Below are positions 1-20,445 of a stretch of DNA of 64,000 bases, piece by piece. How positions within the stretch are numbered: the stretch's first letter is position 1; each line of letters opens with the position of its first letter. The DNA is taken from IMG/VR virus record IMGVR_UViG_3300022902_000008; one strand, 5' to 3'. The position numbers and the translations under genes were made by a program. The notes below the pieces were generated by a model that saw nothing but the letters and a program-made list of their open reading frames with translations, was not told the DNA's origin and searched no databases. Origin of the DNA: a virus.

Positions 1-1
1 A

Positions 2-106
2 ACAAAATCGTGGTATATAAATGATCAAAAATACTCAGAAAACAAATATTGGAAAAAAGTAGGCCTTGACAAGAAAGAAGAGTATTATAAGGGATTGAAC
101 AAATGA
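2..106 (+). CDS. 3' end of an upstream WYLNG-repeat family paralogue (partial)
   Basis: Frame 2 reads TKSWYINDQKYSENKYWKKVGLDKKEEYYKGLNK*, the same C-terminus as ORFs 12781/14360/15430/18062; ATGA overlap with ORF 103. Confidence 0.85.
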   Translation, partial: TKSWYINDQKYSENKYWKKVGLDKKEEYYKGLNK

Positions 107-1419
107 ACCTATTAGAAAAATATATAAGATTATTGTTGGTTGAATCAAGAGTTGATGATATAAAGATAAAATATCCTAATATTGCAAATAAAGTTGAATT
201 ATTATCTAAACAAGACCCTTCAGGCAATAATAAATACCTTGAATGGATGGTTAAGCAGGCTTCAACAGGCTATGGTTTAGATGATATTGTTGAGTTAGTA
301 AACTTATTTCATAAAAGCCAACAAAGGTTGAAAGGTAATAAGAAAGATCTTTATAGTTATAAAAATCTTAGTGAACTGTCAAAAGAGTTAGATAAGCTTC
401 CAAAAAAATCAAAGAGACAACAAAAAATAGAAATTTCTGAAGGTGCAGAAAAAATATATGAAGATGATGAAGCTTTGTTAATAAGGGTGGACACAAAGGA
501 TGCTGTTTGTAAATATGGTGCAGGAACAAAGTGGTGCATAACGAGTAAAAATGAAAGACACTTTGAAAAATATTCAGAAGAGGGCGTTATATTTTATTAT
601 ATGATTGCAAAAAATATAGAAAATGACGGCTCTGTATTAAACAAGATCGCCTTTGCTGTTTATACTGTTGGTTCAAATGTTGGAAAAGTTGACATATTTG
701 ACTCTGAAGATAATGAAAGAAATGTTGTTGGTGATATTGAACATTATCCACCATATGATATGTTGGTCGAAAAGGCATTGCATTTAATTGAAAGTGATTC
801 TAAAAAATTAGGTAAAAATTATTATGTTGATAAAATAGTAGAAAAAATTTATAATAATCCGAAACAAATTTTAGATTATAGTTATAACGATGCCGCAGTA
901 CACGATTTGTTAGAAGATAAGGACTTGCCAGAGGATATATTAGAAGTTGTTTTTAATAATATGGATTTTTTTCTTCACAATATAAACAAGTGGGTATCAC
1001 ATTCAAACAACACGCCTAGATTATTAACTTACTTAAGTGATGATAGACGATTTCCACCATCAATTCGCTCTTTAGTCGCTCTGCATGAGAACACCCCTGT
1101 TGATGTTTTGGGTAGGATGGTTTTTGATTATAATGATGCGACTCAAAGTTGGATGGTTGCTAGGTCAGCGGTTTTGAATGAAAGAACGCCCTATTATGCA
1201 TTGAAGAATGTCATAACTATGGGAAGTCAAAGTCACGATGTAATTTCTTACATGTTGCTAAGGGATGATTTAACATATGAGATAATAAAATTAATGTTAG
1301 AAAATAAATCAACAATGTATTTTATAAAGGATGTTTATGATTATGTAAAAGATCACAAACAAAGCTTTACAGAGGAAGAATATAATAAACTAATGCAAAC
1401 AATTGAATATAATTTTTAA
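103..1419 (+). CDS. Leader-bearing family protein (DPSGNN + CxYGxxTKWC core, C-terminal HEAT/LRV-like repeats); putative virion internal protein
   Basis: MNLLEKYIRLLLVE leader, DPSGNNKYLEWM, AVCKYGAGTKWC, C-terminal HENTPVDVL/NERTPYYAL repeats. Confidence 0.7.
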   Translation: MNLLEKYIRLLLVESRVDDIKIKYPNIANKVELLSKQDPSGNNKYLEWMVKQASTGYGLDDIVELVNLFHKSQQRLKGNKKDLYSYKNLSELSKELDKLPKKSKRQQKIEISEGAEKIYEDDEALLIRVDTKDAVCKYGAGTKWCITSKNERHFEKYSEEGVIFYYMIAKNIENDGSVLNKIAFAVYTVGSNVGKVDIFDSEDNERNVVGDIEHYPPYDMLVEKALHLIESDSKKLGKNYYVDKIVEKIYNNPKQILDYSYNDAAVHDLLEDKDLPEDILEVVFNNMDFFLHNINKWVSHSNNTPRLLTYLSDDRRFPPSIRSLVALHENTPVDVLGRMVFDYNDATQSWMVARSAVLNERTPYYALKNVITMGSQSHDVISYMLLRDDLTYEIIKLMLENKSTMYFIKDVYDYVKDHKQSFTEEEYNKLMQTIEYNF

Positions 1420-1436
1420 ATGGGAGAGTTAAATAA

Positions 1437-1685
1437 ATGCAACTAACTGAAGCACAAATTGAAAATCTAATTTTAAAAGTAATTACAGAGACTACAAATG
1501 GCAAAAAGAAAAAAGTTGCAAGCACACTTAGTCAAGTTGTCAACCTTCTATCAACCTATCAGTTATCATTCTCAGGGGAAGAAAAAAGAAACTTAATTAA
1601 AGCTCAAGGGTTAATTGAAGACATTGTTATTGCAATGGAGAGAGAGTTCAAAAATAACAAACGACAATTAACTTTAGCAGCTTAA
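1437..1685 (+). CDS. Small leader-bearing hypothetical protein
   Basis: GGGAG RBS; N-terminus MQLTEAQIENLILKVITE. Confidence 0.6.
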   Translation: MQLTEAQIENLILKVITETTNGKKKKVASTLSQVVNLLSTYQLSFSGEEKRNLIKAQGLIEDIVIAMEREFKNNKRQLTLAA

Positions 1686-1764
1686 AATATTATAGTGTTT
1701 TTCCTAAATTAAAATATAATTAATATATAGAGAGTAAATTTAAATTAATTGGAATACAAATTAA

Positions 1765-2364
1765 TTGGGTAGATTATTTATAACAAAAAGAGAGCTTCAG
1801 CTTATTTCTGATATTAACAAAGAGTTAATAAAAGATATCATTGGAGAAGAGATAATATATCATCCAGTATCAGAAGAGAAGACAAAAAAGGATGAGCTAT
1901 ATGATGAGGCTGAGGTAAAGGTAACAGAGACTCCAATAAATATAAGATGTTTGGTTAATTGGGAAGGTTCAACAACTGAAACAACAAATTTTGGTGTGGA
2001 TAAGAAATATTCAATTGAAGTTTATTTTCATGAAGAGGATCTTTCAGATAAGAACATAAAGTTGAGAGAGGGTGATTTTGTTGAATATGGAGCAATATTT
2101 TTTGAAGTTATAAATTTAGGACAACCAGACCTTATTTATGGACAAGCTGAGCACAAAGTTATGACAAAAGCTATTTGTAAGTCTGTTAGAAAAGGTCAGT
2201 TTTATAAAGATAGCCTGGAAACAGACGAAGAAAGGGATACGTTTACACAGATTGCTGGTGATGAAGATGAGGGTGACAGGAGAGAGTTGGTTGAAGGTGG
2301 GAAGATTGAGAGGTTGTTGGACCATGGTGTAACTTCACCGTTTACTGAAGATGATGATTATTGA
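1765..2364 (+). CDS. Neck/head-closure protein (T4 gp14-like)
   Basis: ELIKDIIGEEIIY...LYDE...FGVD...EGDFVEYG pattern of large-myophage neck proteins; lies upstream of tail genes. Confidence 0.65.
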   Translation: MGRLFITKRELQLISDINKELIKDIIGEEIIYHPVSEEKTKKDELYDEAEVKVTETPINIRCLVNWEGSTTETTNFGVDKKYSIEVYFHEEDLSDKNIKLREGDFVEYGAIFFEVINLGQPDLIYGQAEHKVMTKAICKSVRKGQFYKDSLETDEERDTFTQIAGDEDEGDRRELVEGGKIERLLDHGVTSPFTEDDDY

Positions 2365-3152
2365 TGGACATATTAGAACGATATATAAAAAACTTAATTG
2401 AGAGGGAGTTAGTTAATGGGCTGTATGGTAAATATTTGTTTGGAGAGCCGAGGGGTCTGCCAACAAAAGAAAATCCAGAAAAAGATGTTGATGAGGAAAG
2501 AAAGTTATATAAAGCTTTGTCTGATTGGGTGCAAGATCGTCGTATAAGTGCTAAGTTTTTGAAGCAGCTTGATAAGTTAAAAGATATGATGGATCAGGGT
2601 TTATATAAGGATGTTTTGAAGCCAAAGCTTGGAAAAGTTTATCGTGGTATGCAACTATCAACTACTTTGGCAGAGGAAATGTTTGGAAACAATATTTTTG
2701 ATGAAATAACTACTGAAAATCTAGTTGTTAAAATTGAAAATTATGTATATGAACCAAGAAAAATGATTTCTTCATGGTCTTATAAAAAAAGAACGGCATT
2801 AGGTTTTTCTGTTTATCTTTATAATAGATTTTATAGAGATATATATTCTAATAAAAATCTTGTTTATGTAATATATAAGGCCAATGTTGCTAATAATAAT
2901 TTTCTGTTTGATTATAGGCAAATTAAGCCATATAATTACTACTTAAGTGGTAAGTATAAGGGCAAATATAAAGAGTTCTTTCCTCATCATGTACATAGTT
3001 CGAATTTAATGAGACAAGAAAGTGAAGTTATTTCATTAGGGCCTATTAATTGTGAGGAGGTTTGTATTATCCCATATGGACTCATAAGTAATGTGGGCAA
3101 ACATATATCTAAAAAAGACGTTGCTGATCTGTTTAGGAGGGAGGTTAGATAG
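2361..3152 (+). CDS. Putative ADP-ribosyltransferase (R-S-E type) with leader
   Basis: VYRG ... ISSWS ... RQESEV catalytic motif order; MDILERYIKNLIERE leader. Confidence 0.65.
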   Translation: MMDILERYIKNLIERELVNGLYGKYLFGEPRGLPTKENPEKDVDEERKLYKALSDWVQDRRISAKFLKQLDKLKDMMDQGLYKDVLKPKLGKVYRGMQLSTTLAEEMFGNNIFDEITTENLVVKIENYVYEPRKMISSWSYKKRTALGFSVYLYNRFYRDIYSNKNLVYVIYKANVANNNFLFDYRQIKPYNYYLSGKYKGKYKEFFPHHVHSSNLMRQESEVISLGPINCEEVCIIPYGLISNVGKHISKKDVADLFRREVR

Positions 3153-4445
3153 ATGCGCTTATTAGAACAATATATAAAAAATCTGTTAGTTGAATCAAGA
3201 TTTGATGATGCGAAAAAAATTGATCCAGAGTTAAAGGAGCCAGGATTAGAATATTTGTCTAATAATGATCCGTCAGGAAATGACAAATACTTAATGTGGA
3301 TGGTAAGGCAAAAGAATTATCCTTTAATGGATAGGCTTGAGTTGGTCAAACAGTTTCATAGAAATATACAAAGGTTGCCAAAAGACAAAAGAGACATAAA
3401 CAAATTTGTTAGTATGGAAGAGCTAAGTGCGTTTCTTGACAATATAGCTATAACTTCAAAAAGGCAGCAAAAAAAAGATATTTCAAAAGGTGGCGTAGAA
3501 AGGGTTTATGAAGATGATAATGTATTAGCTTTCAGGGTAAACACAGAGGATGCTGCTTGTAAATATGGTGCAGGAACAAAATGGTGCATTTCAGCAAAAA
3601 GAGATAACAGGTTTATACAATATTCTATGGATAATGTTGTGTTTTATTTTTTACTTAACAAAGATCTTATAAGTAAAGCCCCTCATGATAAGTATGCAAA
3701 GGTTGCAATTGCTGTTGGTACTGATGGAAGGGATGAAACATTTGATGCAACTGATACAAAATTTCATGTATTAGATTTGTTATCAAAGGCCGAAACTCCT
3801 GAAATTGACAACTCTATATCAAAAGCATTAGCAAGAATTAATGTAAATTGGGCAAAAAATTCAAAGTCTGTTTGTAAAGAAAAGTTTATGGAAGAGATAA
3901 ATAATAATCCAAAAAATGTTATGAAATTAGGTACTTCATATAAAATACGATTAGCTAGTGATTTTAACACACAAGGTAATGTTTTAGAATATTTGGCAGG
4001 GTATGAAAGTTATCCTGAAGTTTTGTTGCCGTTAACAGGAAACCCATCACTGACAATAAAAGCTATGAAGTTGTTGTCAAATCATGATAATTTTCAAGTG
4101 AGGGCCGGGATTGCTATAAATGAAAAAACTCCAATTAATATCTTAAGAGAATTGTCTAAGGACGATCATGAGTATGTTAAGTTTCAGTTAATTAGAAACA
4201 TTGTTGCTATGAAAGATAAAGGGGTTATTGATATATTGTTAAGTGGTGAGTGTAGTAAGGTTAGGGAAGTGTTGGCGTGGTCTAGCTATACTCCAATGAA
4301 TGCATTATTTAGGCTAGCTTATTATGATAACAGTTTAATTGTTAGGGAACGGGCATTGAAACAAATTATTGAAAGAGATTATAAAGACGAATATGATAGA
4401 TATAAGGAAACACCAGAAAAAGAGAGGCTAGAAAAGTATGCCTAA
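3153..4445 (+). CDS. Leader-bearing family protein with HEAT/LRV-like repeats
   Basis: MRLLEQYIKNLLVE, DPSGNDKYLMWM, AACKYGAGTKWC, VRAGIAINEKTPINILRELSKD repeats. Confidence 0.7.
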   Translation: MRLLEQYIKNLLVESRFDDAKKIDPELKEPGLEYLSNNDPSGNDKYLMWMVRQKNYPLMDRLELVKQFHRNIQRLPKDKRDINKFVSMEELSAFLDNIAITSKRQQKKDISKGGVERVYEDDNVLAFRVNTEDAACKYGAGTKWCISAKRDNRFIQYSMDNVVFYFLLNKDLISKAPHDKYAKVAIAVGTDGRDETFDATDTKFHVLDLLSKAETPEIDNSISKALARINVNWAKNSKSVCKEKFMEEINNNPKNVMKLGTSYKIRLASDFNTQGNVLEYLAGYESYPEVLLPLTGNPSLTIKAMKLLSNHDNFQVRAGIAINEKTPINILRELSKDDHEYVKFQLIRNIVAMKDKGVIDILLSGECSKVREVLAWSSYTPMNALFRLAYYDNSLIVRERALKQIIERDYKDEYDRYKETPEKERLEKYA

Positions 4446-5717: not shown

Positions 5718-8558
5718 ATGGCAACAGAGAAGACATTTAGAAGTCCTGGTATTTTTCAGACTGAAATCGAATTAACCCCAACTCAGATTAAACCATTTGG
5801 TACTCCTGGTACTGTTGTAGGTACGGCAGAAAAAGGGCCTGCCTTTGTACCAGTACTATTTGCTCAATGGAAAGACTTTGTTGCAACATTTGGTGATTTG
5901 GACTCTGATTATTATGGTCCATATGCAATGAGAGAGTTTTTAAGGAGTAGCACATCTGGCGTTTATATGAGAGTTTTGGGTGGTGGAACAGCAGCAGTTA
6001 GTGCAACTGATGGTACAGTTTCCAATGCTGGTTTTTTGCTTTCTGGTAGTGATGGAAGGGTACAATTCCTTTGTGCAAACCATACAGACACTACAGATTC
6101 ACAATTCCTTGGACAAGCTTCAGGCTCAGCAGAAGATTCATCAGCAAACTTGGTGAGAGCCGTCATTATGACAAGTGGTTCAACAAGAATCAGGGTTGCA
6201 GATACCACTGAAGATGATGTTCCAATTGCTAACCTAGAAACTTTTAATGATACTTGTACGGCAACAGGTAACAAGTTTCACTTGTTTATTTCTTCATCAT
6301 CAGATTGGACTGGTGGAAATGTTGCTGGTAGTCTTAATGTTAGAAAATTAAGTGCATCATTAAACCCATCAGATACTGAGTATGTTGGTAATACCCTCAA
6401 TACTGATCCAGATTTATTTGGCACAGAAAGGCACTTACTTTACCTTGACTTCCCTGTTGATATTGAACGTGCGACTACTGTAGGCAAAACTGTAGAAATT
6501 CTTAGTGGTTCACATATTGATGCTGGCGAAAATTGGGATAAAAAATATGGTGATTATCAAAGTAGATATACAACTTCAAAATCTCCTTATGTTATTTCAC
6601 AAAGATTTGGTACAAGAAAGTATGATCTTTTCTATTTTGAGTCACTTTCTGATGGAAAATGGGCTAATGAAAATATTAAGATCTCTGTTACAAATGTAAG
6701 AAGGCCTGTTTCTGATACCGAACTTTATGGAACCTTTACTTTAGTGGTAAGAAAGTTTGATGATACAGATAACGATCCAGTTATTATGGAACAACATACA
6801 AACTTAGATCTTAACCCAAATTCAGAAAATTATATCATTAGAAGAATTGGAGATAAAAGTATTTATTTTGATTGGGATCAAAGTGATGATGACGAAAGAA
6901 GGTTAGTAGTAGATGGTGATTATGCAAACAGATCAACTCATATCAGAGTAATTCCAAGTAATGATCTTAAAAATGGTGTGGTTCCAACCGATGCCCTTCC
7001 ATGGGGATTTAAGGGATATCCATTAATGCATACAAAAAATAGGCTCTTTGGTGATGAAGCAACAATTATTGATTCGACCATCCCTCCAATCCCATTTAGG
7101 GTTAACGTGGGTAAAAAGTCTAGCACAAACAAAACCCTTAACACAAAACTACATTGGGGTGTACACTTTGAAAGAGCTTCAGGCTCAGCAGAAAGTGTGT
7201 GGTCAGGAAGAGATGATGGTTATATTAATGCCTCATTAAAACATAATAATTGTCTAGATAGTATGGCTAGGTTTATGGGAATTAATCATGCCGGACAAGA
7301 TGTATTGTTGTCTGGTTCAAATATGAATGATTATAGCGCAACTGTTGGTAGTTGGTATAATGAATTCTCATTAGAAAAAATTGATACAGCAGGGTCTTCT
7401 TCAAAATTGTCAGATGCAAAATATTGGCAATATAAAGGAACTTATGATCTTGCAGCTTCAAATGCATTCAAACCAGACTCAACTTATCTAAATAAGTTTG
7501 CAAATGTAGCTAAATTCTCATTCTTCTTTTATGGTGGTTTTGATGGCACAGATATGCTAGATAAAAATTCACGTCTAATGAGAGATGATGATATGCAAGC
7601 AACTGAGTTCACTGTGAGAAATGTTGTTCATGGTAATTCATTGGATTGTAATACAGTTAAGTCATATAGAACTGCAATTGATATTGTTGCAAATCCAGAA
7701 AATGTAGATACAAACTTGTTAGCAATTCCTGATATTCGAGATGGATTGGTTACTGACTATGCAGTAGATGCCGTTGAGGACAGGTTTGATTGTTTCTATA
7801 TTATGGATGCTGAAAATGTTGATGAAGATGGTGATGTAATTTTTGATAATCCAGTTGGGCAAGATGTCGCAGGAAGTGGTAGGCCATCAGTTGAAAATAC
7901 GATTAGTCAATTGGAGACAAGAGGCCTTGATACAAACTTTGCTGCAACTTATTGGCCTGATGTTCGTTTATATGACGAGGCAAATAATAAAGTAGTAACT
8001 GTTCCGCCTTCAGTTGTTGTGATGGGTGCATTTGCGTTTAATGATAAAGTAGCTCAGCCTTGGTTTGCCCCTGCTGGATTTAATAGGGGTGGATTAACTA
8101 ATGTTAGAGATGCAGATGTTAGATTGACTCACAAAGATCGTGGTGATCTTTATGATGCAAATGTTAATCCAATTGCACAGTTCCCTAAAGAGGGTGTTTT
8201 AATTCTTGGTCAGAAAACACTTCAAGCTGCACAATCTGCCCTTGATCGTGTTAATGTCCGAAGAATGGTGTTGGAAGTTAGGAGAGCAGTCAAGTCTGTT
8301 GCACAGAAATTGCTTTTCGAGCCAAATACTTTTAGCACATGGGAACGTTTTGTTTCTATGGTTAATCCTATTTTAGAACGTGTACAATCTCAGTCAGGAT
8401 TAGAGAAGTTCAAGGTTGTCATGGATGATACCACAACTTCACAGTCTGATGTTGAAAATTATGTGATGAAGGGGATGATCTACTTGGCCCCAACAAAGGC
8501 GGCAGAATTCATTAGTATCGATTTTGTTATTACAAATGCTGGTGTTGAATTTGCATAA
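5718..8558 (+). CDS. Tail sheath protein 1
   Basis: SPGIFQTEIE, KGPAFVP, WFAPAGFNRG, GQKTL...RVNVRR, EFISIDF sheath motifs. Confidence 0.95.
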   Translation: MATEKTFRSPGIFQTEIELTPTQIKPFGTPGTVVGTAEKGPAFVPVLFAQWKDFVATFGDLDSDYYGPYAMREFLRSSTSGVYMRVLGGGTAAVSATDGTVSNAGFLLSGSDGRVQFLCANHTDTTDSQFLGQASGSAEDSSANLVRAVIMTSGSTRIRVADTTEDDVPIANLETFNDTCTATGNKFHLFISSSSDWTGGNVAGSLNVRKLSASLNPSDTEYVGNTLNTDPDLFGTERHLLYLDFPVDIERATTVGKTVEILSGSHIDAGENWDKKYGDYQSRYTTSKSPYVISQRFGTRKYDLFYFESLSDGKWANENIKISVTNVRRPVSDTELYGTFTLVVRKFDDTDNDPVIMEQHTNLDLNPNSENYIIRRIGDKSIYFDWDQSDDDERRLVVDGDYANRSTHIRVIPSNDLKNGVVPTDALPWGFKGYPLMHTKNRLFGDEATIIDSTIPPIPFRVNVGKKSSTNKTLNTKLHWGVHFERASGSAESVWSGRDDGYINASLKHNNCLDSMARFMGINHAGQDVLLSGSNMNDYSATVGSWYNEFSLEKIDTAGSSSKLSDAKYWQYKGTYDLAASNAFKPDSTYLNKFANVAKFSFFFYGGFDGTDMLDKNSRLMRDDDMQATEFTVRNVVHGNSLDCNTVKSYRTAIDIVANPENVDTNLLAIPDIRDGLVTDYAVDAVEDRFDCFYIMDAENVDEDGDVIFDNPVGQDVAGSGRPSVENTISQLETRGLDTNFAATYWPDVRLYDEANNKVVTVPPSVVVMGAFAFNDKVAQPWFAPAGFNRGGLTNVRDADVRLTHKDRGDLYDANVNPIAQFPKEGVLILGQKTLQAAQSALDRVNVRRMVLEVRRAVKSVAQKLLFEPNTFSTWERFVSMVNPILERVQSQSGLEKFKVVMDDTTTSQSDVENYVMKGMIYLAPTKAAEFISIDFVITNAGVEFA

Positions 8559-8613
8559 TTAAATTAATTAGTGGAGATATTTAAATATATAATATTGATA
8601 GGAGATAATAATA

Positions 8614-11553: not shown

Positions 11554-11588
11554 GGATGATTGTTTCTTAAAATAAATGTTAATTGATG

Positions 11589-11611
11589 GGGGCCTTTCTA
11601 GGCCCCTTTTT
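11589..11611 (+). terminator. Rho-independent terminator after sheath genes
   Basis: GGGGCCT-TTCT-AGGCCCC hairpin followed by TTTTT. Confidence 0.8.
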
Positions 11612-11627
11612 ATTTGGGGGGTTTTAA

Positions 11628-12764
11628 ATGTTGTTGGAAGTTAAAAAGGTCAAGGTGGTTAGTAAGTCTAAATTTAATAGTAAAAAGTTCAAAGAGATTT
11701 TAGTTTTAAAGTGTGATTATTGTGGAAAAATATTTGAAAAAAGGTTTGCTACTTGGTATAGTCAAAAAGAAAATCATTTTTGTTCAAGAATTTGTGCTAA
11801 CACACGTCCAGAAAGAAATGAGCATTTAAGCAGGGTAATGAAAATTATGCACCAAAACAGAACAGATGAAGAACGACTGGTTGTTAGTGAGAAGGTGAGC
11901 AAAAGTATTAAAAAATGGAATGACAATAGAACTGAAGAGGAAAAAAGGCTGGCATATGAAAAAACATCTAAAACTTTGAACAACAAGACTAATGATGAGA
12001 AACAAAAAAGGGCAAGAAAGTTTAAAAAGACATGGCATAATAGGTCAGAAGATGAAAAGAAAGCATATTCAGAAAAACAAAGGAGGAACACAAAACTAAG
12101 GTGGAATAATAAAACTGAAGAAGATAAACAAAAGTGGGCTGAAATGTCTAAAGAAAGATTAAACAATAGAACTAAAGAAGAGCGTATAAGGGATATTAAT
12201 CGTATTAAAGCTGGTCTTAATAAAAGAACAAAAAAACAAATTGAAGAAGCAAATAAAAAAAGAAAAGAAACAATAAGTAAAGATCCTGATTTCCATAGAA
12301 AGCGTATAAAGAAAACACAACAAACAAGGAAAAAGCGATATGGAGAAGGTGATTGTTTTGCTAAATCAGAAATAGAAAGCATATATTATGAATATCTTTT
12401 GTTTTGGTATTCCGAAGATGAGATTGAAAGACAGAGTTTTAAAAATGGATGGATAATGGATTTCTACATTATTCCAGAAAATACATATGTTAATTTTAAT
12501 GGTGATTATTGGCATGGAAAAGATCAGACACACAATGACTTAATGAAAAAAGCAATAATATATGAAAAGAAAAATAATTTGAAAAAATCTCAATATAGAA
12601 AAATTGCAAGTACTATTTTAATTGATCAAAAGAAAATAGACTACTTCAAAGAACAAAACATTCCCTATCAGATAATATGGGAGTATGATTTTAAAGAGTT
12701 TTTAAATAACAGTCCAATGTTAAAAGAAAATTTAGGTAAAAAAATGGAAAATAGACAAGTTTAA
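11628..12764 (+). CDS. Free-standing putative homing endonuclease (Vsr/DUF559-like C-terminus, Zn-binding N-terminus, basic helical repeats)
   Basis: CDYC...FCSRIC; about 7 N(R/K)(T/S)xEE-type repeats; C-terminal MDFYI...NGDYWH...IIWEYDF. Confidence 0.7.
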   Translation: MLLEVKKVKVVSKSKFNSKKFKEILVLKCDYCGKIFEKRFATWYSQKENHFCSRICANTRPERNEHLSRVMKIMHQNRTDEERLVVSEKVSKSIKKWNDNRTEEEKRLAYEKTSKTLNNKTNDEKQKRARKFKKTWHNRSEDEKKAYSEKQRRNTKLRWNNKTEEDKQKWAEMSKERLNNRTKEERIRDINRIKAGLNKRTKKQIEEANKKRKETISKDPDFHRKRIKKTQQTRKKRYGEGDCFAKSEIESIYYEYLLFWYSEDEIERQSFKNGWIMDFYIIPENTYVNFNGDYWHGKDQTHNDLMKKAIIYEKKNNLKKSQYRKIASTILIDQKKIDYFKEQNIPYQIIWEYDFKEFLNNSPMLKENLGKKMENRQV

Positions 12765-12780
12765 TTGATAATTATATATA

Positions 12781-13872
12781 ATGAACTTATTAGAAAAATA
12801 TATTAGATTATTGTTGGTTGAATCAAGAGTTGGTGATGTCAAAAAGAAGTATCCTGATTATGGTGGGTTTATACAAACAATGTCTGAGAACGATCCCTCT
12901 AATAACAATGCATATTTGATGTGGATGGTGGGACAATTTATTGATCATATAAATAATTATGAGTCAATAATAGACACAGTTAATAAGTTTCATAAAGTTA
13001 AGAATAAGCTCCCAAAAGATAAAAGAGATCTTTATAAGTATGAACATTTATATCAATTAAAAGATGAGATGGGCAAAGTGTCAGATGTGTCAAAACGTCA
13101 ACAAAAGAAGATTGTAAAGAAAAAGGGCGCAGACATTGTATTTGAGAATGATGAAGTTGTGGTATTAATCCCCAAGACGCATAAGGCCAGTTGTTATTAT
13201 GGAAGCAATACGAAGTGGTGTACAGCTTCAAAGGACAACTCAAGTCACTTTGATAACTATTTAGGAAAAGTAACGTTATATTACATTTTACCAAAAGATG
13301 GTGGGGAGAAGGTTGCGGTTGCAGTTGATGAAGATAATGATAAAAAGGTGTTTGATTCTAAGGATAATGGAAAGAATTTAAGTTGGCTGAAAGACAAGTT
13401 GCAACAATATAACATTCCAAGTTCGACATTTAAGTATGTTCTGTTGACGGGGATGATAGAAAGAAATGATGGAGCAAAAGAATGGTATTTAAATGGAGAA
13501 CTTCATCGAACTGATGGTCCCGCTTATGAACATCCTAATGAATCAAAAGAATGGTGGTTAAATGGGAGGCTTCATCGAACTGACGGACCTGCAATTGAAT
13601 ATTCTAATGGAACAAAACATTGGTATCTAAATGGAAAGTTGCATCGAGAAGATGGTCCTGCGCTTGAGTGGCCTGATGGATCAAAAGAATGGTATCTAAA
13701 TGGACAGCTTCATCGAGAAGATGGTCCTGCTATTGAATATTCTGACGGCCATAAAGAATGGTGGATAAATGGAAGGGAATATCTAGAAGATAAATATTGG
13801 CAAAAGGTAGGCCTTGACAAGAAAGAAGAGTATTATAACAATTACAACAATAAAAAACAAACTGACTCTTAA
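12781..13872 (+). CDS. Leader-bearing family protein with 4 x 23-aa WYLNG repeats
   Basis: Leader, DPSNNNAYLMWM, ASCYYGSNTKWC, WYLNGxxHRxDGPAxE repeats. Confidence 0.8.
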   Translation: MNLLEKYIRLLLVESRVGDVKKKYPDYGGFIQTMSENDPSNNNAYLMWMVGQFIDHINNYESIIDTVNKFHKVKNKLPKDKRDLYKYEHLYQLKDEMGKVSDVSKRQQKKIVKKKGADIVFENDEVVVLIPKTHKASCYYGSNTKWCTASKDNSSHFDNYLGKVTLYYILPKDGGEKVAVAVDEDNDKKVFDSKDNGKNLSWLKDKLQQYNIPSSTFKYVLLTGMIERNDGAKEWYLNGELHRTDGPAYEHPNESKEWWLNGRLHRTDGPAIEYSNGTKHWYLNGKLHREDGPALEWPDGSKEWYLNGQLHREDGPAIEYSDGHKEWWINGREYLEDKYWQKVGLDKKEEYYNNYNNKKQTDS

Positions 13873-13921
13873 CTATATTTTTATGCATTTTTTATTGCAT
13901 ATATAAGGACTTAAAATAGGT

Positions 13922-14359
13922 ATGAAAAATTTAAATTCGTTCATAGAGCTTGTTTTATTAGAAGGTATGGATGAGTACTACAAGGACAACACAGGCTTTT
14001 TAAAGCGAAATGTAAAGGATTTTTTGAACAAATATTCAAATAATATTGATAAATATTTTTTATATAAATCTGATCGACATTTGGAATATGCATTAAATAA
14101 TATAAGAGATCTATACGAAACCTTTTCAAACATGGTTGATGATAAATATTTGGATTTTGATGAAACATCGTTTTTACCAACAAAGGATATTGATTATGAT
14201 TATTTGCACAACCTTTCAGAGAACATGATTTCTTTTATAAATAAGATTGGTGACAAGGTTGAAGGTGGTGGGGATTCTATTGCTCATATTAAAGCTGGAA
14301 TTGAGAAGATCAAGTTTGTTATTGTTGCAATTGAGAGGGTGTTGGGTGAGAGTGAATAA
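13922..14359 (+). CDS. Leader-bearing hypothetical protein
   Basis: MKNLNSFIELVLLE-G N-terminus. Confidence 0.6.
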   Translation: MKNLNSFIELVLLEGMDEYYKDNTGFLKRNVKDFLNKYSNNIDKYFLYKSDRHLEYALNNIRDLYETFSNMVDDKYLDFDETSFLPTKDIDYDYLHNLSENMISFINKIGDKVEGGGDSIAHIKAGIEKIKFVIVAIERVLGESE

Positions 14360-15433
14360 GTGAACTTATTAGAAAAATACATTAGATTGTTGTTGGTTGA
14401 GGGAAGGTTGGAGGATGTTCGGAATAAATATCTTAACAACAAAGATCTTGTTAACAATTTGTCTAGTCAAGATCCGTCAGGCAACAACAAATATCTTTTA
14501 TGGATGACTCAACAAGTTGTTGATGGTGGGGAAAATGAAGCGAGTGTTGTTGATTTGGTTAACAAGTTTCATAAAAATCAACAAAGATTGAAAGGTGATA
14601 AGAGGGATTTATATAAATATAACAGCTTAAGTGATCTTGGGAAAGAGTTGAGTAAAGTTACAGATAAATCAAAAAGTCAACAAAAGAAGGCTATAAAAAA
14701 AGAAGGCGTAGACATTGTATTTGAAAGCGATAAGGTGTTGATTGTAATCCCCAAGACTCATAAGGCAAGTTGTTATTATGGGAGCAACACCAGTTGGTGT
14801 ACAGCTTCAAGGAAAAACTTAAATTATTTTGAGAGTTATTTGGGAAAAGTTACATTATATTACATATTACCGAAGGATGGTGGGGAGAAGATTGCAGTTG
14901 CAGTTTACAAGAATAATGATAAAAAGATATTTGATTCTGGGGATAATAAGAAGGGTTTAAGTTGGCTGGAAAACAAGTTGCAACAATATAACATTCCAAG
15001 TTCGATATTTAAGTATATTTTACTTGCTAGAATGATAAGAAAGGATGATGGGACAATATTATGGTATCTAAATGGACAGCTTCATCAAACTGACGGTCCT
15101 GCTGTTGAACATCCTGATGGAACAAAAAGATGGTATTTGAGTGGAAAGCGTCATCGAACTGACGGCCCTGCTATTGAATATTCTGACGGCCATAAATCAT
15201 GGTATTTAAATGGAGTACGTCATCGAACTGATGGTCCTGCTTATGAACATCCTGATGGAATAAAAACATGGTGGATAAATGGAAAGCGTCATCGAGAAGA
15301 TGGTCCTGCTGTTGAATATTCTGACGGCCATAAAGAATGGTGGTTAAATGGCATGGAATATCCAGAAGATAAATACTGGCAAAAGGTAGGTCTTGACAAG
15401 AAAGAAGAGTATTATAAGGGATTAAAAAAATAA
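14360..15433 (+). CDS. Leader-bearing family protein with 4 WYLNG repeats
   Basis: GTG start; paralogous to 12781 and 18062. Confidence 0.8.
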   Translation: MNLLEKYIRLLLVEGRLEDVRNKYLNNKDLVNNLSSQDPSGNNKYLLWMTQQVVDGGENEASVVDLVNKFHKNQQRLKGDKRDLYKYNSLSDLGKELSKVTDKSKSQQKKAIKKEGVDIVFESDKVLIVIPKTHKASCYYGSNTSWCTASRKNLNYFESYLGKVTLYYILPKDGGEKIAVAVYKNNDKKIFDSGDNKKGLSWLENKLQQYNIPSSIFKYILLARMIRKDDGTILWYLNGQLHQTDGPAVEHPDGTKRWYLSGKRHRTDGPAIEYSDGHKSWYLNGVRHRTDGPAYEHPDGIKTWWINGKRHREDGPAVEYSDGHKEWWLNGMEYPEDKYWQKVGLDKKEEYYKGLKK

Positions 15434-15504
15434 ACTTATTAGAAAAATATATTAGATTATTATTAGTTGAATCAAGGGTTGATGATGTTAAAAAAAGATA
15501 TCCT
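15299..15504 (+). repeat. 206-bp direct repeat, copy 1 (spans gene junction)
   Basis: Matches 19007-19212 with 3 mismatches by manual alignment. Confidence 0.9.
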
Positions 15505-16641
15505 GATTGTAGTATAATTGAAATGATGTCTAGAAGAGATCCATCAGGTAATAACAAATATTTAATGTGGATGGTGGGACAATTTGCTGATCATTTAAAT
15601 GACTATGAATCAATAATAGACACAGTTAACAAGTTTCATAAAGTTAAGAATAAACTCCCAAAAGACAAAAGAGATCTTTATAAGTATGAACATTTACATC
15701 AATTAAAGGATGAGATGGGTAAAGTGTCAGATGTGTCAAAAAGGCAACAAAAGAAGATTATAAAAAAAGAAGGTGCAGATACTGTGTTTGAGAATGACAA
15801 GGTTGCAGTTGTGATCCCCAAGACTCACAAGGCAAGTTGTTATTATGGAAGCAACACCAAATGGTGTACAGCTTCAAAGGATGATTCAAGTCACTTTGAC
15901 AATTATTTAGGAAAAGTCACATTATATTATATATTACCGAAGGATGGTGGGGAGAAGGTTGCAGTTGCAGTTGATGAGCATAATGACAAAGAGATATTTG
16001 ATTCTGGGGATAATGGAAAAAGGTTATGGTGGCTGGAAGGTAAGTTGCAACAATATAACATTCCAAGTTCAACATTCAAGTATATTCCACTTACGGGGAT
16101 GATAAGAAAGGATGATGGGACAATATTGTGGTATCTAAATGGCTATTTTCATCGAATTGATGGCCCTGCTTATGAACACCCTAATGGAAAAAAACGATGG
16201 TATCTAAATGGAAAGCTTCATCGAGAAGATGGTCCTGCTATTGAACGTCCTAATGGAACAAAATATTGGTTTCTAAATGGAAAGCTTCATCGAAAAGATG
16301 GTCCTGCTATTGAAGACTCTGATGAATCAAAAGAATGGTACTTAAATGGAAAGCGTCATCGAACTGACGGCCCCGCTTATGAACATCCTGACGGAACAAA
16401 ATCATGGTATCTAAATGGAAAACTTCATCGAGAAGATGGTCCTGCAATTGAACGGGCTGATGGAACAAAACATTGGTATTTAAATGGAAGGAAACATCGA
16501 AAAGATGGTCCTGCTGTTGAAGATTCTAATGGCCATAAAGAATGGTGGTTAAATGGCATGGAATATCCAGAAGATAAATACTGGCAAAAGGTAGGTCTTG
16601 ACAAGAAAGAAGAGTATTATAAGAATGACAATAAAAAATAA
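15430..16641 (+). CDS. Leader-bearing family protein with 6 WYLNG repeats; ancestral ATG mutated to ATA
   Basis: In-frame ATA-AAC-TTA-TTA-GAA (INLLEKYIRLLLVE) begins 31 codons before the ATG at 15523. Confidence 0.75.
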   Translation: MNLLEKYIRLLLVESRVDDVKKRYPDCSIIEMMSRRDPSGNNKYLMWMVGQFADHLNDYESIIDTVNKFHKVKNKLPKDKRDLYKYEHLHQLKDEMGKVSDVSKRQQKKIIKKEGADTVFENDKVAVVIPKTHKASCYYGSNTKWCTASKDDSSHFDNYLGKVTLYYILPKDGGEKVAVAVDEHNDKEIFDSGDNGKRLWWLEGKLQQYNIPSSTFKYIPLTGMIRKDDGTILWYLNGYFHRIDGPAYEHPNGKKRWYLNGKLHREDGPAIERPNGTKYWFLNGKLHRKDGPAIEDSDESKEWYLNGKRHRTDGPAYEHPDGTKSWYLNGKLHREDGPAIERADGTKHWYLNGRKHRKDGPAVEDSNGHKEWWLNGMEYPEDKYWQKVGLDKKEEYYKNDNKK

Positions 16642-16903
16642 AATATGTGAAATATGTAATAGTTTTTCTAATGGCCTTGACAAGCATCATATTCAGTCAA
16701 GGTGTTTTGGGGGAGAAAATAAAAAATATAATATTGTAAATATTTGTTGTAATTGTCATAGAAATGTTCATTTAGGAAAAGTTATTATTGAAGGTAGGTT
16801 TAATAGCACAAAAGGAAATGTTGTTGTTTGGAGATATGAGGGTGATGATAAAAAAATTGTAAGTGAAGATCCAAAAGTACATATAATAGGAGAAAAAAAA
16901 TGA
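16625..16903 (+). CDS. Small HNH endonuclease
   Basis: CEIC...DKHHI...GG...NIVNICCNCHRNVH; ATG at 16625 preferred over TTG 16598. Confidence 0.8.
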   Translation: MTIKNKICEICNSFSNGLDKHHIQSRCFGGENKKYNIVNICCNCHRNVHLGKVIIEGRFNSTKGNVVVWRYEGDDKKIVSEDPKVHIIGEKK

Positions 16904-17220
16904 ATAAGAAAATAAAGTTATCTGAAAGCAGAGTAAGGGCTGTTATAAAAAAAATTATAAAAGAAGAGTTTGATGATTACGGTGATGATGGTGATGATTA
17001 TGGTGATGCAATTGAACAGCTTTTAAATATTAAAGACAAAATGAAAGAGTTGGTTGAAGAAGCAAAACATATTATTCGTAATGCTGATGATGATAGGGGG
17101 ATATATGAGAGGGCGAGAAGGCAGTGGGCCGCACATATTGAAGGTGCGCTAGACAAGGAAAATGACTGGATGGGTGGCTCAATGCATACAATGCAAGATA
17201 CAATTGATGAACTTGAATAA
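16900..17220 (+). CDS. Leader-bearing acidic hypothetical protein
   Basis: KIKLSESRVRAVIKKIIKEE N-terminus; GGAG RBS. Confidence 0.65.
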   Translation: MNKKIKLSESRVRAVIKKIIKEEFDDYGDDGDDYGDAIEQLLNIKDKMKELVEEAKHIIRNADDDRGIYERARRQWAAHIEGALDKENDWMGGSMHTMQDTIDELE

Positions 17221-17244
17221 TAAAAATATAATAGGGGATAAAAA

Positions 17245-17745: not shown

Positions 17746-17767
17746 TTAAGGGGAGATAAAAATAAAA

Positions 17768-18058
17768 ATGAATAATAATAAATTAGAATTAATTATTGAA
17801 AGTTTGTTATTAGAAGAGATTGGTTCTCCAACAATTGCAGAGTTAATGCAATCAAAAATACACAAAGCATATACAGTAGTTGCTGATGATCTTGCATCTT
17901 TAGGTTATTTTACAACTGAAGAGAGGATATCATTATCTTCAGCAATATCAAATGCGTTAAAAGAATTTTCTGAAGAGGCAAAAAGAAATAAAGCTTTTGA
18001 TAAAAAAGTAAGACCAGAACATTTAGATAAGTTGGTTATGAAAAGAGGGAAAGAATAA
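17768..18058 (+). CDS. Leader-bearing hypothetical protein
   Basis: KLELIIESLLLEE N-terminus; GGGAG RBS. Confidence 0.6.
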   Translation: MNNNKLELIIESLLLEEIGSPTIAELMQSKIHKAYTVVADDLASLGYFTTEERISLSSAISNALKEFSEEAKRNKAFDKKVRPEHLDKLVMKRGKE

Positions 18059-18061
18059 AAG

Positions 18062-19141
18062 GTGAACTTATTAGAAAAATATATTAGATTATTATTGATT
18101 GAGGGAAGGTTAGAAGATGTTATAAAGAAATATTCTAATTATCATACTGTTCCCTCAATAAAGCTTTTGGCACAAAAAGATCCTTCTGGAAATAACAAAT
18201 ATTTAATGTGGATGATGGACCAATATGATAAAAACAATAATGATTATGAGTTAATAATTGATCTAGTTAACAAATTTTATAAAAATCAACAAAGGTTGAA
18301 GGGTGACAAGAGGGATTTATATAAATATAACAGCTTAAGTGATCTTGAAAGTGAATTAAGTAAAGTTCCAGATAAATCAAAGAGACAGCAAAAAAAGGCC
18401 GTAAAGAGGGAAGGTGCAGATATCGTATTTGAGAATGATGAAGTTGTGGTATTAATTCCGAAGACTCATGAGGCCAGTTGTTATTATGGAAGTAATACCA
18501 AATGGTGTACAGCATCAAAAGATGATTCGAGTTACTTTGATGATTATTTGGAAGAAGTCACATTATATTACATATTACCGAAGGATGGTGGGGAGAAGGT
18601 TGCAGTTGCAGTTGATGAGCATAATAACAAAGAGATATTTGATTCTGGGGATAATGGAGAAAGGTTAAGTTGGTTGGAAGACAAATTGCAACAATATAAC
18701 ATTTCAAGTTCGATATTTAAGTATATTCCGCTTACGGGGGTGATAAAGAGGGGCGACGGGGGAAGGCATTGGTTTCTAAATGGCAAGCGTCATCGAATTG
18801 GTGGCCCTGCAATAGTTCGGCCTAATGGTAGAAAAGAATGGTATTTAAATGGAAAGCGTCATAGAACTGATGGCCCTGCTGTTGAACGGGCTGATGGATA
18901 TAAAGCATGGCTTCTAAATGGAAAGCGCCATAGAACTGATGGCCCTGCAATAGTTCGGCCTAATGGGACAAAAGCATGGTATCTAAATGGAAAGCGTCAT
19001 CGAACCGATGGTCCTGCTGTTGAATATTCTGACGGCCATAAAGAATGGTGGTTAAATGGCATGGAATATCCAGAAGATAAATACTGGCAAAAGGTAGGTC
19101 TTGACAAGAAAGAAGAGTATTATAAGGGATTAAAAAAATGA
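18062..19141 (+). CDS. Leader-bearing family protein with 4 WYLNG repeats
   Basis: GTG start; paralogous to 14360. Confidence 0.8.
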   Translation: MNLLEKYIRLLLIEGRLEDVIKKYSNYHTVPSIKLLAQKDPSGNNKYLMWMMDQYDKNNNDYELIIDLVNKFYKNQQRLKGDKRDLYKYNSLSDLESELSKVPDKSKRQQKKAVKREGADIVFENDEVVVLIPKTHEASCYYGSNTKWCTASKDDSSYFDDYLEEVTLYYILPKDGGEKVAVAVDEHNNKEIFDSGDNGERLSWLEDKLQQYNISSSIFKYIPLTGVIKRGDGGRHWFLNGKRHRIGGPAIVRPNGRKEWYLNGKRHRTDGPAVERADGYKAWLLNGKRHRTDGPAIVRPNGTKAWYLNGKRHRTDGPAVEYSDGHKEWWLNGMEYPEDKYWQKVGLDKKEEYYKGLKK

Positions 19142-19212
19142 ACTTATTAGAAAAATATATTAGATTATTATTAATTGAATCAAGGGTTGACGATGTTAAA
19201 AAAAGATATCCT
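19007..19212 (+). repeat. 206-bp direct repeat, copy 2
   Basis: Matches 15299-15504. Confidence 0.9.
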
Positions 19213-20445
19213 AATTATGGTAGTGAAATTGAAATGATGTCTAAACAAGATCCTTCAGGCAATAACAAATATTTAATGTGGATGGCAGATCAATTTATTA
19301 AATATTCAAACAATTATGAATCAATAGTAAACATAATTAATAAGTTTCATAAGGTTAAAAATAGGTTGCCAAAAGATAAAAGAGATATTAATAAATATAA
19401 GCATTTATACCAATTGAAGGATGAGTTGTTAAAAGTTCCGGTAGGTTCTAAAAGACAGAAAAGGATAGAGATTTCCAAGGGGGCAGAAAAAATATATGAA
19501 GATGAAGAGTTTATTGTATTGAGGGTAAACACAAAAGAAGCTGCTTGTAAATACGGATCAGAAACAAAATGGTGTATTTCAGGTAAAGAAGATAATAGGT
19601 TTATAGAATATTCTAGGCGAGATAATGTATTTTTCTATATCATAAAAAAAGGTTTTTCAAAAAATGATCATGATCCATTGTATAAAATTGCAGTTGCAAC
19701 AAATAAAGATGGTGACTTTGAAATATTTGACGCATGGGACGATACCATCTCTCCAGCCAAAGTAAGTGATTATTTGGGAGAGAAAAGATATGATGTAATA
19801 AATAATAGGATGCTTAATAGTGTAACAGAAGAACCAAGCTCAAAATACAACAAAGAACTTGAAAACGGAATAAAAAATAAAGATCCAGAAATATTAAAAA
19901 CTATACAAGAAAATGACTTGGATTCAAATTCAAGTATAATATTATCACTTGTTAACAAAAAAGAACTAAGGAGAACAGTGTTTCTAAATGTTTCTTATGA
20001 TCAATTGATTGTGATGGTAAGTGAACATAATAATGCTAGTCATGATTTTACAAATGAAGACTTAATTGCAATTATAGATAAATATTATGGAAAAAACTAT
20101 AGTAAGGATAATAATGGTTGGAATTTAAGGCTTGCCTTTAAAATTGTCAATGTTTATTTGGGTAAGACTGATAGAGAAGTAGTTACTATGAGGTTAGTAA
20201 AACTTCCAATAGAACAAGTAAGAGAGAAGATCGCTTTAAGACCAAATTTGCCTGAAAATATTGCTTTAATGTTGGCTGAAGATGAGAGTAAGGATGTTAA
20301 AATGAGCTTATCATTAATGACTGGCTGGCTATCTGTATTTAAAAAGTTAATGAAAGATAAAGATGAGAAAGTGGTGCAATATGCTAAAGAAAATTTAAAT
20401 AGTTTAAATAAAAGAAGAAGTGAGATGGGATTATCAGAAATATAA
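19138..20445 (+). CDS. Leader-bearing family protein with HEAT/LRV-like C-terminus
   Basis: Leader, DPSGNNKYLMWM, AACKYGSETKWC, VREKIALRPNLPENIALMLAEDE. Confidence 0.75.
   Translation: MNLLEKYIRLLLIESRVDDVKKRYPNYGSEIEMMSKQDPSGNNKYLMWMADQFIKYSNNYESIVNIINKFHKVKNRLPKDKRDINKYKHLYQLKDELLKVPVGSKRQKRIEISKGAEKIYEDEEFIVLRVNTKEAACKYGSETKWCISGKEDNRFIEYSRRDNVFFYIIKKGFSKNDHDPLYKIAVATNKDGDFEIFDAWDDTISPAKVSDYLGEKRYDVINNRMLNSVTEEPSSKYNKELENGIKNKDPEILKTIQENDLDSNSSIILSLVNKKELRRTVFLNVSYDQLIVMVSEHNNASHDFTNEDLIAIIDKYYGKNYSKDNNGWNLRLAFKIVNVYLGKTDREVVTMRLVKLPIEQVREKIALRPNLPENIALMLAEDESKDVKMSLSLMTGWLSVFKKLMKDKDEKVVQYAKENLNSLNKRRSEMGLSEI

Follow-up and report, generated by a model that had tools for sequence, protein, structure and literature searches.

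An expanded family of leader-bearing, PcfJ-like modular proteins in a large uncultured marine phage: possible cargo of the phage head

Introduction

Why would a phage keep, close to its structural genes, a whole series of genes that begin alike and end differently? The question is raised by a 64,000-nucleotide stretch of viral DNA (IMG/VR record IMGVR_UViG_3300022902_000008; "the window" hereafter means this whole stretch), in which seven open reading frames have an N-terminal module of about 225 aa in common. A first-pass annotation, made from the letters alone, had proposed that they encode virion effectors with an invariant two-Cys catalytic core, packaged into the head, injected with the DNA and aimed at different host targets by swappable repeat domains. 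The module belongs to one of the larger uncharacterised phage families (at 50% identity it splits into more than 9000 clusters, and jumbo phages carry several copies), and one member has been proteomically confirmed in virions. Here we ask which parts of the proposal hold and how the family might work.

Results

Family copies in the window and just upstream

The seven ORFs proposed initially were found at the positions given, with all their motifs. A profile of the first 225 aa, run against all six frames of the window, matched exactly these seven (E 1e-100 to 2e-115) and no further copies. An eighth copy ending at position 106 is also genuine, since bases 2-106 in frame 2 encode the C-terminal end of another MORN-type copy, whose full length on overlapping contigs is 340 aa. 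As a total, eight is too low: the phage has at least ten copies, two more (612 aa and 357 aa) lie upstream, flanked by the genes for the portal and the prohead protease, and the 612-aa copy has a C-terminus of a third type. No GenBank phage with near-identical DNA to the window was found. The copies and the parts of one of them are as follows.

2..106, + strand: upstream MORN-type copy, C-terminal end (full copy 340 aa, L002:3193-4215 / L108:11642-12664)
103..1419, + strand: family copy, 438 aa, LRV-like helical C-terminus (profile; LRV 15.8 bits)
3153..4445, + strand: family copy, 430 aa, LRV/HEAT-like helical C-terminus (motifs, profile, hhalign)
12781..13872, + strand: family copy, 363 aa, 23-aa repeats (profile; DUF6745 32.9 bits)
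12781-12822, + strand: leader of copy 12781 (aa 1-14)
aa 25-105 of copy 12781, + strand: helical domain
13096-13395, + strand: PcfJ-like alpha/beta core of copy 12781 (aa 106-205)
13456-13800, + strand: 23-aa repeats of copy 12781 (aa ~226-340)
14360..15433, + strand: family copy, 357 aa, GTG start, MORN-like repeats (motifs, Pfam, profile)
15430..16641, + strand: family copy, 403 aa if read from ATA, six full repeats (motifs, profile)
18062..19141, + strand: family copy, 359 aa, GTG start, MORN-like repeats (motifs, profile)
19138..20445, + strand: family copy, 435 aa, helical C-terminus (motifs, profile)

Copy 3153..4445 abuts its upstream gene and overlaps its downstream gene. Copy 15430 has ATA at the start position, where the other copies have ATG or GTG; one G>A change gives this ATA and also turns the upstream TGA stop into TAA. 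Read from the next Met (15523), the product would have 372 aa and no leader.

Each protein consists of a leader, a helical domain with the motif DPSxNxKYLxWM, an alpha/beta domain of about 100 aa and a variable C-terminus. The alpha/beta domain carries the motif G..T.WC, of which WC (W146 and C147) is invariant and G141 and T144 nearly so. At 50% identity the family comprises 9302 clusters, almost wholly viral in the atlas and in BFVD, and each of five jumbo phage genomes holds two to six dispersed copies; among related phages, numbers and types vary. Pfam has no model for the family. PHROGs 17056 and 28193 cover the module under the annotation 'unknown function', searches against Pfam, NCBIfam and PDB sequences gave chance-level matches only, and Foldseek against the PDB returned nothing at E<=0.001, whether the query was the complete module or just the core.

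In most paralogue comparisons dN/dS is well below 1 (0.05-0.53 over all segments). Together, the genes of the window and those just upstream form an expanded group of ten or more old paralogues, all under purifying selection. A constant N-terminal module with varied repeat C-termini, as first described, is valid family-wide (among 106 representatives). The stronger claim, a C-terminus swapped on a fixed core, fails within this genome, where the core comes in two subtypes, each going with one C-terminal class. The segment exchanged within the genome is instead the N-terminal helical part (residues 25-105), as in the mosaic copy 19138, which resembles MORN-class copies over aa 25-105 and the helical class in its core.

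Two classes of C-termini

The division into two C-terminal classes was borne out: 23-aa repeats in 12781, 14360, 15430 and 18062, helical repeats in 103, 3153 and 19138. The former consist of four to six full W(Y/W/F)LNG..HR.DGPA units and a degenerate last one. Reading of all scores depends on the Pfam cut-offs, which are 21.6 bits for LRV (PF01816), 27.7 for HEAT_2, 27 for DUF6745 (PF20530) and 29.6 for MORN_2. LRV stays below its cut-off in ORF 103 (15.8 bits) and ORF 19138 (12.0 bits), and so does HEAT_2 in ORF 3153 (15.1 bits). Aligned with the LRV repeats of the family relative P0218 (LRV 50.9 bits), the three helical C-termini nevertheless give an hhalign probability of 87% (E 3.9e-6). 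DUF6745 exceeds its cut-off in 12781 (32.9 bits) and 14360 (31.1) and falls below it in 15430 (22.5) and 18062 (19.4); the matched stretch is only about 20-30 residues. Of the profile's 206 positions, the matches take in no more than one or two repeat units. MORN repeats have a 23-residue period, and MORN_2 (PF07661) scores 12.5 bits on the 23-aa repeats, under its cut-off. Their nearest atlas clusters are DUF6745-bearing viral proteins, and nothing was found among PDB sequences. Among the 106 representatives the C-terminal partners are LRV (27), HEAT (19), LRV_2 (15) and DUF6745 (2).

A borderline PcfJ-like core, and the question of catalysis

The core had been said to recall PcfJ-like domains. 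This resemblance is real but weak: the best relative scores 23.4 bits (E 5.8e-5) against the Pfam PcfJ model (PF14284), whose gathering score is 25 bits, and the seven window proteins show no match at E<=1. Matches at E<=1e-3 occur in 4 of the 106 representatives, and those on relatives fall on the core, aligning residues ~104-196 with positions 23-121 of the profile. A small PcfJ HMM matches the cores of seven relatives (E 3.5e-4 to 1.4e-2). Two hhalign runs of the family against PcfJ gave E 0.014 and 0.035 at low probability, both pairing WC with HC over the same region, and in Foldseek searches of BFVD the PcfJ-like phage proteins rank right after the family members (E 2.8e-3 to 8e-2, low TM-scores). 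This evidence, weak but consistent, places the core as a borderline relative of the PcfJ domain. No PDB search returned a solved PcfJ structure. No paper in the literature searched gives a function for PcfJ, so the link names a fold and not a mechanism. On plasmid pCF10, pcfJ adjoins an AcrIIA9-family gene; PcfJ-like domains also occur upstream of DGR variable regions.

An invariant pair of catalytic cysteines is not what the family shows. W146 and C147 are invariant in 177/177 domains, C147 being the second Cys (GTKWC), while the first is mobile or absent: 60% of domains have it at position 138, a further 20% at the adjacent 137, and about 20% lack it. A conserved His, a known catalytic fold and a solved-structure match were not found for the core. 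With no solved fold or catalytic signature, the label 'catalytic core' is unsupported, and nothing was found that indicates an enzyme. One could still picture a Cys-dependent enzyme that uses both cysteines and is delivered as a toxin-like effector, given the invariance of W146 and C147, the near-invariance of G141 and T144 and the strong constraint on the core (omega mostly 0.07-0.14 among MORN-class copies, rising to as much as 0.23 in comparisons with 14360). We regard this as very unlikely, as the first Cys is shifted or lost in so many domains and absent in the homologue of phage PA5oct, there is no conserved His or other partner for a nucleophile, and PcfJ itself is without known activity.

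Genes around the family copies

The family genes of the window lie co-directionally in partly overlapping structural operons and in the sheath-to-tube interval. Placing them among neck and tail genes was correct for the tail, with two sheath genes and a gp19-type tube; the 'neck' label of the small neighbours found no confirmation. The phage also encodes a T4-type portal and a gp21-type prohead protease (PF03420; phrog_207, 5.8e-44), whose gene starts, on one contig, 54 bases past a family copy. In the T4 gene map, the portal-protease interval is occupied by the core genes 67 and 68. The neighbours are as follows.

5718..11553, + strand: two tandem tail sheath genes (5718-8558 and 8614-11553), which separate family copies
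20769..21305, + strand: tail tube gene of T4 gp19 type, bounding the family block downstream
L111:14758-15396: prohead protease, Peptidase_S77 / PF03420 (phrog_207, 5.8e-44)
2364..3152, + strand: non-family gene, 262 aa, begins MDILERYIKNLIERE, family-like leader
13922..14359, + strand: non-family gene, 145 aa, begins MKNLNSFIELVLLEG, leader-like N-terminus
16900..17220, + strand: small protein, ..IIKEEF leader-like start, then acidic DDYGDDGDDYGD run

The protein of 16900..17220 resembles a very acidic 77-aa protein that is encoded directly 3' of the protease and begins VNLLEKYIENIIKEEF. Searches of ORF 2364-3152 against Pfam, NCBIfam and PDB sequences lent no support to an ADP-ribosyltransferase assignment. 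Within the window the T4 late promoter TATAAATA is enriched, yet it does not precede the family genes, and a sigma-70 and terminator scan yielded one strong terminator and was otherwise uninformative.

The leader and the case for head packaging

The leader is a short amphipathic segment, NLLEKYI..LL-V/I/A-E, followed by G/S-R. It is the most conserved part of the proteins, with 62-96% identity in pairs of copies that reach only 32-40% in their cores, and as its dS is 0.6-1.3 in most pairs, this conservation reflects selection and not recent conversion. All copies match the T4-style (L/I)-x-E pattern at motif level (L12-(V/I/A)13-E14, then S or G). Across the family, 81% of domains have E at position 14, and the next residue is G, S or A in about 90%. 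A NLLEKYI-type leader also heads the small acidic protein beside the protease and other non-family small genes, and PF03420 is encoded in all five of the other family-bearing jumbo genomes tested. In T4, a 10-residue CTS is cut after Glu, and the gp21 logo fits LIE (PMC9026906).

A second line of evidence comes from Pseudomonas phage PA5oct, whose EST35_0205 (QCG76086.1) matches the N-module at E 4e-24 and about 25% identity. The protein was detected in virions and is annotated 'structural protein, ESI-MS/MS' (PMC7318152). Its gene adjoins an ORF that resembles a large terminase by sequence (annotated hypothetical). No Pfam match was found for its C-terminus, and the PcfJ Pfam model had no match in the PA5oct record.

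Head packaging, as first proposed, thus has a circumstantial case in the PA5oct virion homologue, the gp21-type protease, the copies between portal and protease and the shared leader, which together suggest that family proteins are loaded into the phage head. Several observations point the other way. The PA5oct homologue is distant and does not begin with an LLEGR-type sequence. Internal domain copies in multi-domain relatives retain the leader from position ~11 on, and AlphaFold puts it inside one long helix (residues 2-23), so that it may simply belong to the fold. In only 7 of 79 IMG/VR loci is a protease, portal or TerL gene found no more than 8 kb from a family gene, about chance level, so linkage to the head cluster does not characterise the family as a whole; one homologue is located among metabolic genes. 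Finally, L-x-E within 25 residues is frequent by chance in such proteomes.

The same observations feed the idea of unpackaged proteins, made during infection as cytoplasmic host-takeover or anti-defence adaptors, in which the PcfJ-like module would be effector or scaffold, the repeats would bind host proteins and the N-terminal helix would be part of the fold. LRV, HEAT, ankyrin and MORN-type repeats and acidic tails typify intracellular binding proteins, homologues elsewhere are dispersed (some amid metabolic genes), internal domain copies retain the leader region, and an AcrIIA9-family gene stands beside pCF10 pcfJ. We nonetheless find it rather unlikely in view of the PA5oct homologue in purified virions, the co-directional, overlapping structural operons at the portal-protease and sheath-tube intervals, and the leader on unrelated small proteins beside the protease.

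The virion status of the PA5oct homologue would equally suit external virion parts, with the N-module anchored to neck, tail or baseplate and the C-termini as distal binding domains, like interchangeable fibres or whiskers. Receptor-binding proteins usually combine a constant N-terminus with variable C-termini, and tail genes lie nearby, as do fibre-like and beta-helix-like proteins (by-eye calls; Pfam found nothing in the beta-helix-like one). But LRV/HEAT helical and ankyrin repeats and long acidic tails are unusual in receptor-binding proteins, two copies lie in the head cluster near the protease, and the models show no fibre-like or trimerisation features; we consider such a role improbable.

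The portal-protease location, and a leader common to small acidic proteins, would also fit prohead-core assembly factors in the manner of T4 gp67/gp68, which help to build a large head and are then degraded or inert. Assembly alone hardly explains ten diverged paralogues with different binding repeats, or numbers and types that vary among related phages, and a pure assembly role seems highly unlikely to us.

Discussion

Our preferred reading is that the phage has at least ten leader-bearing PcfJ-like paralogues which would be loaded into the head, trimmed by the protease, carried in the virion and injected, their repeats binding different partners; from the analysis above we give it a probability of roughly 45%. 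Under this scenario the leader would act as a T4-like capsid-targeting propeptide, bringing into the prohead core both the family proteins and several small, unrelated proteins that share it. The gp21-type protease would then remove the leader in the prohead, cutting after the glutamate of L-x-E. The mature proteins would ride in the virion and enter the cell along with the DNA, and in the cell the repeat domains (LRV/HEAT, 23-aa MORN-like/DUF6745, or other) would bind different partners. A bolder version is doubtful, namely that NLLEKYI..L-x-E might be a portable capsid-loading tag in marine T4-related jumbo phages, loading ten PcfJ-like adaptors plus small cargo for co-injection, with the PcfJ-like domain as a general 'first-into-the-cell' effector module.

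Should the leader prove to be a tag for capsid targeting, the logic of T4 internal proteins would extend to uncultured marine jumbo phages, and a sequence rule would allow packaged cargo to be predicted from a genome without other data. The PcfJ superfamily, shared by phages and conjugative plasmids, would gain its first functional context, and the repeat C-termini would become a readable record of the host partners aimed at.

Comparison with known systems

T4 offers one of the closest parallels. Its CTS proteins (IPI-III, Alt) and gp67/gp68 share with the window family an amphipathic N-terminal leader ending in L/I-x-E, and both phages have a gp21-type protease and a T4-type portal, with some of the copies here lying between portal and protease. 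As in T4 cargo, the leader occurs on otherwise unrelated proteins and the set is diversified and lineage-variable (PMC9026906). In contrast, the IPs, Alt, gp67 and gp68 have no sequence homology to the window family, whose proteins are much larger and modular with repeat domains, and whose post-Glu motif (G/S-R..D) is conserved as part of a domain.

The PcfJ-like domain (PF14284; prototype PcfJ, Enterococcus faecalis pCF10) presents strand, P.T, helix, G, (W/H)C, Y and strand in the same order. It is C-terminal in PcfJ, whereas here it is N-terminal, behind leader and helical domain, and PcfJ has HC where the window family has WC. The helical C-termini align to confirmed LRV repeats, yet the window copies stay under the Pfam LRV and HEAT cut-offs; the other class has the 23-residue period of MORN repeats, and two of its copies reach the DUF6745 cut-off. 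PA5oct EST35_0205 differs in being single-copy and in having neither the first Cys nor an LLEGR-type start, but it is a true homologue of the window N-module and a virion protein.

Results and discussion

A multi-copy family in the structural region

The seven ORFs named in the first-pass annotation (103, 3153, 12781, 14360, 15430, 18062 and 19138) were all found on the + strand with their motifs as described. A profile of their first 225 residues (hereafter the N-module: leader, helical part and alpha/beta core) matched them at E 1e-100 to 2e-115 in the six frames of the 64-kb window, and nothing else in it. The further copy reported to end at 106 is genuine: bases 2-106 encode, in frame 2, the C-terminal 34 residues of another copy, which is complete on overlapping metagenome contigs (340 aa) and carries the 23-residue MORN-like repeats (MORN-type). 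The window is part of a circularly permuted marine metagenome contig of 216,854 bp and low GC, whose far end runs straight into the window start; the samples of origin are JGI 3300022912 and 3300024243 and ENA ERZ27250217. The upstream gene order is as follows.

Gene order upstream of the window (L111 is DNA of the same phage from this region)
1. large terminase
2. T4-type portal (PF07230)
3. three small genes
4. family copy, 612 aa, third kind of C-terminus
5. three small genes
6. family copy, 357 aa, MORN-type
7. L111:14758-15396, T4 gp21-type prohead protease (PF03420; phrog_207, 5.8e-44)
8. L111:15409-15642, very acidic 77-aa protein, directly after the protease
9. several unknowns
10. one gene judged fibre-like from its repeated sequence, and one beta-helix-like by eye, the latter with no Pfam match
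11. the 340-aa copy, then the window

From the window copies and this order, the phage therefore carries at least 10 family copies within ~45 kb of its structural region, which confirms and extends the original observation. Two tail sheath genes stand between the window copies, and the block ends just before a gp19-type tube gene. A strong G+C-rich hairpin followed by a T run (11588-11621) lies directly 3' of the second sheath gene; within the first 20 kb of the window no other intrinsic terminator is convincing. Elsewhere in the window, 49796-51709 encodes a phage Hsp70/DnaK-like protein (637 aa, N-terminus GIDLGTSRSA.., phrog_22485 at 7e-210). Three genes in and around the block have HNH or Zn-ribbon regions.

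11628-12764: CDYC Zn-ribbon N-terminal region shared with 21444-22502 (E 7e-5)
16598-16903: HNH domain by Pfam, inside the family block
21444-22502: the same Zn-ribbon region, and a match to an HNH endonuclease PHROG

The first and last flank the sheath-to-tube insertion that carries five family copies; these are possible homing endonucleases behind local shuffling. The 15430 copy has ATA where its start codon is expected: a single G>A within 15428-15434 removed its ATG and at once converted the TGA stop of 14360, which overlaps it, to TAA. Translation of this copy may be poor, or may begin at the next Met (15523) and so omit the leader; despite the ATA, omega of its core against 12781 is ~0.07.

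Modularity of the family

C-termini of two classes support the proposed modular repeats in part. Those of ORFs 103, 3153 and 19138 are helical, share only 19-24% pairwise identity and lie below Pfam cut-offs; as a profile they matched the LRV repeats of P0218, a database relative, at 87% probability (E 3.9e-6). Each MORN-type copy has between 3 and 6 full 23-residue units and a degenerate last one; two reach the DUF6745 cut-off and none that of MORN_2, and the atlas neighbours of these repeats are small viral DUF6745-type proteins. The same WYLNG..HR.DGPA repeat also forms two stand-alone small proteins among the non-structural genes of the window (24999-25430, 143 aa; 46200-46559, 119 aa), which lack leader and core. 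Family-wide, LRV/HEAT is the commonest C-terminal partner, others being acidic tails, ankyrin and LRR.

Pairwise identity along the N-module
Residues 1-24, leader: 62-96% in most pairs, 50-67% for the divergent 3153, across both classes
Residues 25-105, helical part: mosaic; 19138 (helical class) is 67-68% identical to 12781 and 15430 (MORN class)
Residues 106-200, alpha/beta core: 69-87% within the MORN class, 32-40% between classes

The core therefore divides exactly by C-terminal class, and the idea of C-termini swapped on a fixed core does not hold in its proposed form: within this genome, core and C-terminus move as a unit and the mosaic N-terminal part has been exchanged. Over all segments dN/dS ranges from 0.05 to 0.53, and most comparisons lie well below 1. 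Since leader dS is 0.6-1.3 in most pairs, the leader is conserved by selection on the peptide and not by recent conversion.

A large viral family

The N-module, which has no model in Pfam or NCBIfam and in PHROGs matches solely groups of unknown function, defines a large, uncharacterised family. Its profile matched 9302 clusters at E<=1e-3 among 1.84 billion representative proteins; at E<=1e-10 there were 5115. The neighbours in the atlas and in BFVD are viral, and a pattern scan of 185,579 species genomes returned only 20 loci, chiefly on contigs of Bacteroidota MAGs, a weak hint at Bacteroidota as hosts. Among cultured phages only the PA5oct group, CcrBL9 and Salicola SCTP-2 carry it. Five large IMG/VR genomes have 2-6 dispersed matches each, and a second copy lies within 8 kb at 28 of 79 loci. 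In 134 of 147 representatives the domain begins at or before residue 45, and 26 proteins hold 2-5 domain copies. Some relatives (P0121, P0122, P0130 and others; 1000-1844 aa), with 2-5 modules in tandem that each begin near L-x-E-G-R, could represent polyproteins that are cleaved into units, or else fusions made in gene calling. Members in 'Marseillevirus LCMAC' metagenome bins (BFVD A0A481YZT2, A0A481Z016, A0A481YW50; one named ankyrin repeat protein, one glutamate-tRNA ligase) reflect either mis-binned phage DNA or a broader viral range.

The core: a probable distant PcfJ relative

Conservation scored on 183 domain instances from 147 representatives does not bear out an invariant catalytic Cys pair. 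W146 and C147 are invariant (177/177), and G141 (176/177) and T144 (171/177) nearly so. The first Cys stands at position 138 in 60% of domains, at 137 in 20%, and is missing in the remainder, as it is in EST35_0205, the virion-proven homologue of Pseudomonas phage PA5oct; no conserved His or other obvious partner was found among the scored domains. A two-Cys active site thus does not characterise the family; a single structural or functional Cys is possible. Neither conservation nor comparison with solved structures gave evidence of catalysis. An enzymatic two-Cys core is very improbable.

The AlphaFold model of the N-module (30-sequence alignment; mean pLDDT 88.8) predicts helices from residue 2 to 115 and, behind them, a small alpha/beta domain (117-210); the core alone reached pLDDT 86.4 and pTM 0.78. 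Neither model had a convincing match among solved structures (Foldseek, none at E<=0.001). The suspected likeness to PcfJ (PF14284) finds weak support from several sides, below the Pfam threshold. Four of 106 representatives matched, all on the core (residues ~104-196 to profile positions 23-121), at best with 23.4 bits (cut-off 25). A small HMM from Enterococcus PcfJ proteins matched the same region of seven relatives, and hhalign placed strand-P.T-helix-G..WC on the ..HC of pCF10 PcfJ (E 0.014 and 0.035). In a Foldseek comparison with BFVD many 'PcfJ-like' phage proteins rank directly behind the family's own members, and PcfJ occurs on 26% of members of the nearest named atlas cluster. Because these lines all weakly agree, the core is probably a distant PcfJ relative. 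In pCF10 (L006:10874-12984, NC_006827.2) the prototype pcfJ overlaps a gene whose annotation reads Cas9 inhibitor AcrIIA9 family, and a DpnD/PcfM family gene is close by; the setting looks like an anti-defence neighbourhood. A PcfJ-like motif has also been reported upstream of DGR variable regions (PMC5758913).

Are the proteins loaded into the head?

Packaging into the virion, as first proposed, finds partial support. We tentatively favor head-loaded, co-injected adaptors (probability roughly 45%). In PA5oct, for which 93 virion-linked products have been reported (PMC7318152), the distant homologue EST35_0205 bears the label of structural protein, with detection by ESI-MS/MS. That the family instead forms an external appendage is rather improbable. 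A gp21-type protease is present in this phage, in PA5oct and in 5/5 family-bearing jumbo genomes tested, and two copies lie between the portal and protease genes. Proteins acting only in core assembly are also very unlikely. Homologues elsewhere, however, are dispersed, one of them in a metabolic gene setting, and there is no enrichment of head genes around the family; cytoplasmic adaptors that are never packaged are unlikely, but the least so of these alternatives.

Head loading would make the leader a portable capsid-targeting tag, cut after E14, the Glu of L-x-E, by the gp21-type protease, with the proteins loaded into the head and then co-injected as adaptors. Two unrelated genes, at 2364 and 13922, have leaders of this kind, and the starts of several small neighbours are more loosely alike. 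Against such a tag, the region from about position 11 is retained in internal domain copies and modelled within a long helix, and the PA5oct protein lacks such a start. For leader-bearing ORF 2364-3152, an ADP-ribosyltransferase assignment found no support in Pfam, NCBIfam or PDB sequence searches.

In favor of head loading, the 77-aa acidic protein just after the protease begins VNLLEKYIENIIKEEF. A small protein at 16900-17220 has a leader-like start too (..VIKKIIKEEF), and both contain very acidic D/G/Y-rich runs. The two products are reminiscent of the small prohead core proteins of T4 that are processed to acidic internal peptides. As a motif match, the leader's L-(V/I/A)-E, with G or S as the next residue, agrees with the T4 rule that cleavage follows the Glu of L/I-x-E, and T4's own 10-residue capsid targeting sequence sets a precedent for a tag of this portable kind (PMC9026906).
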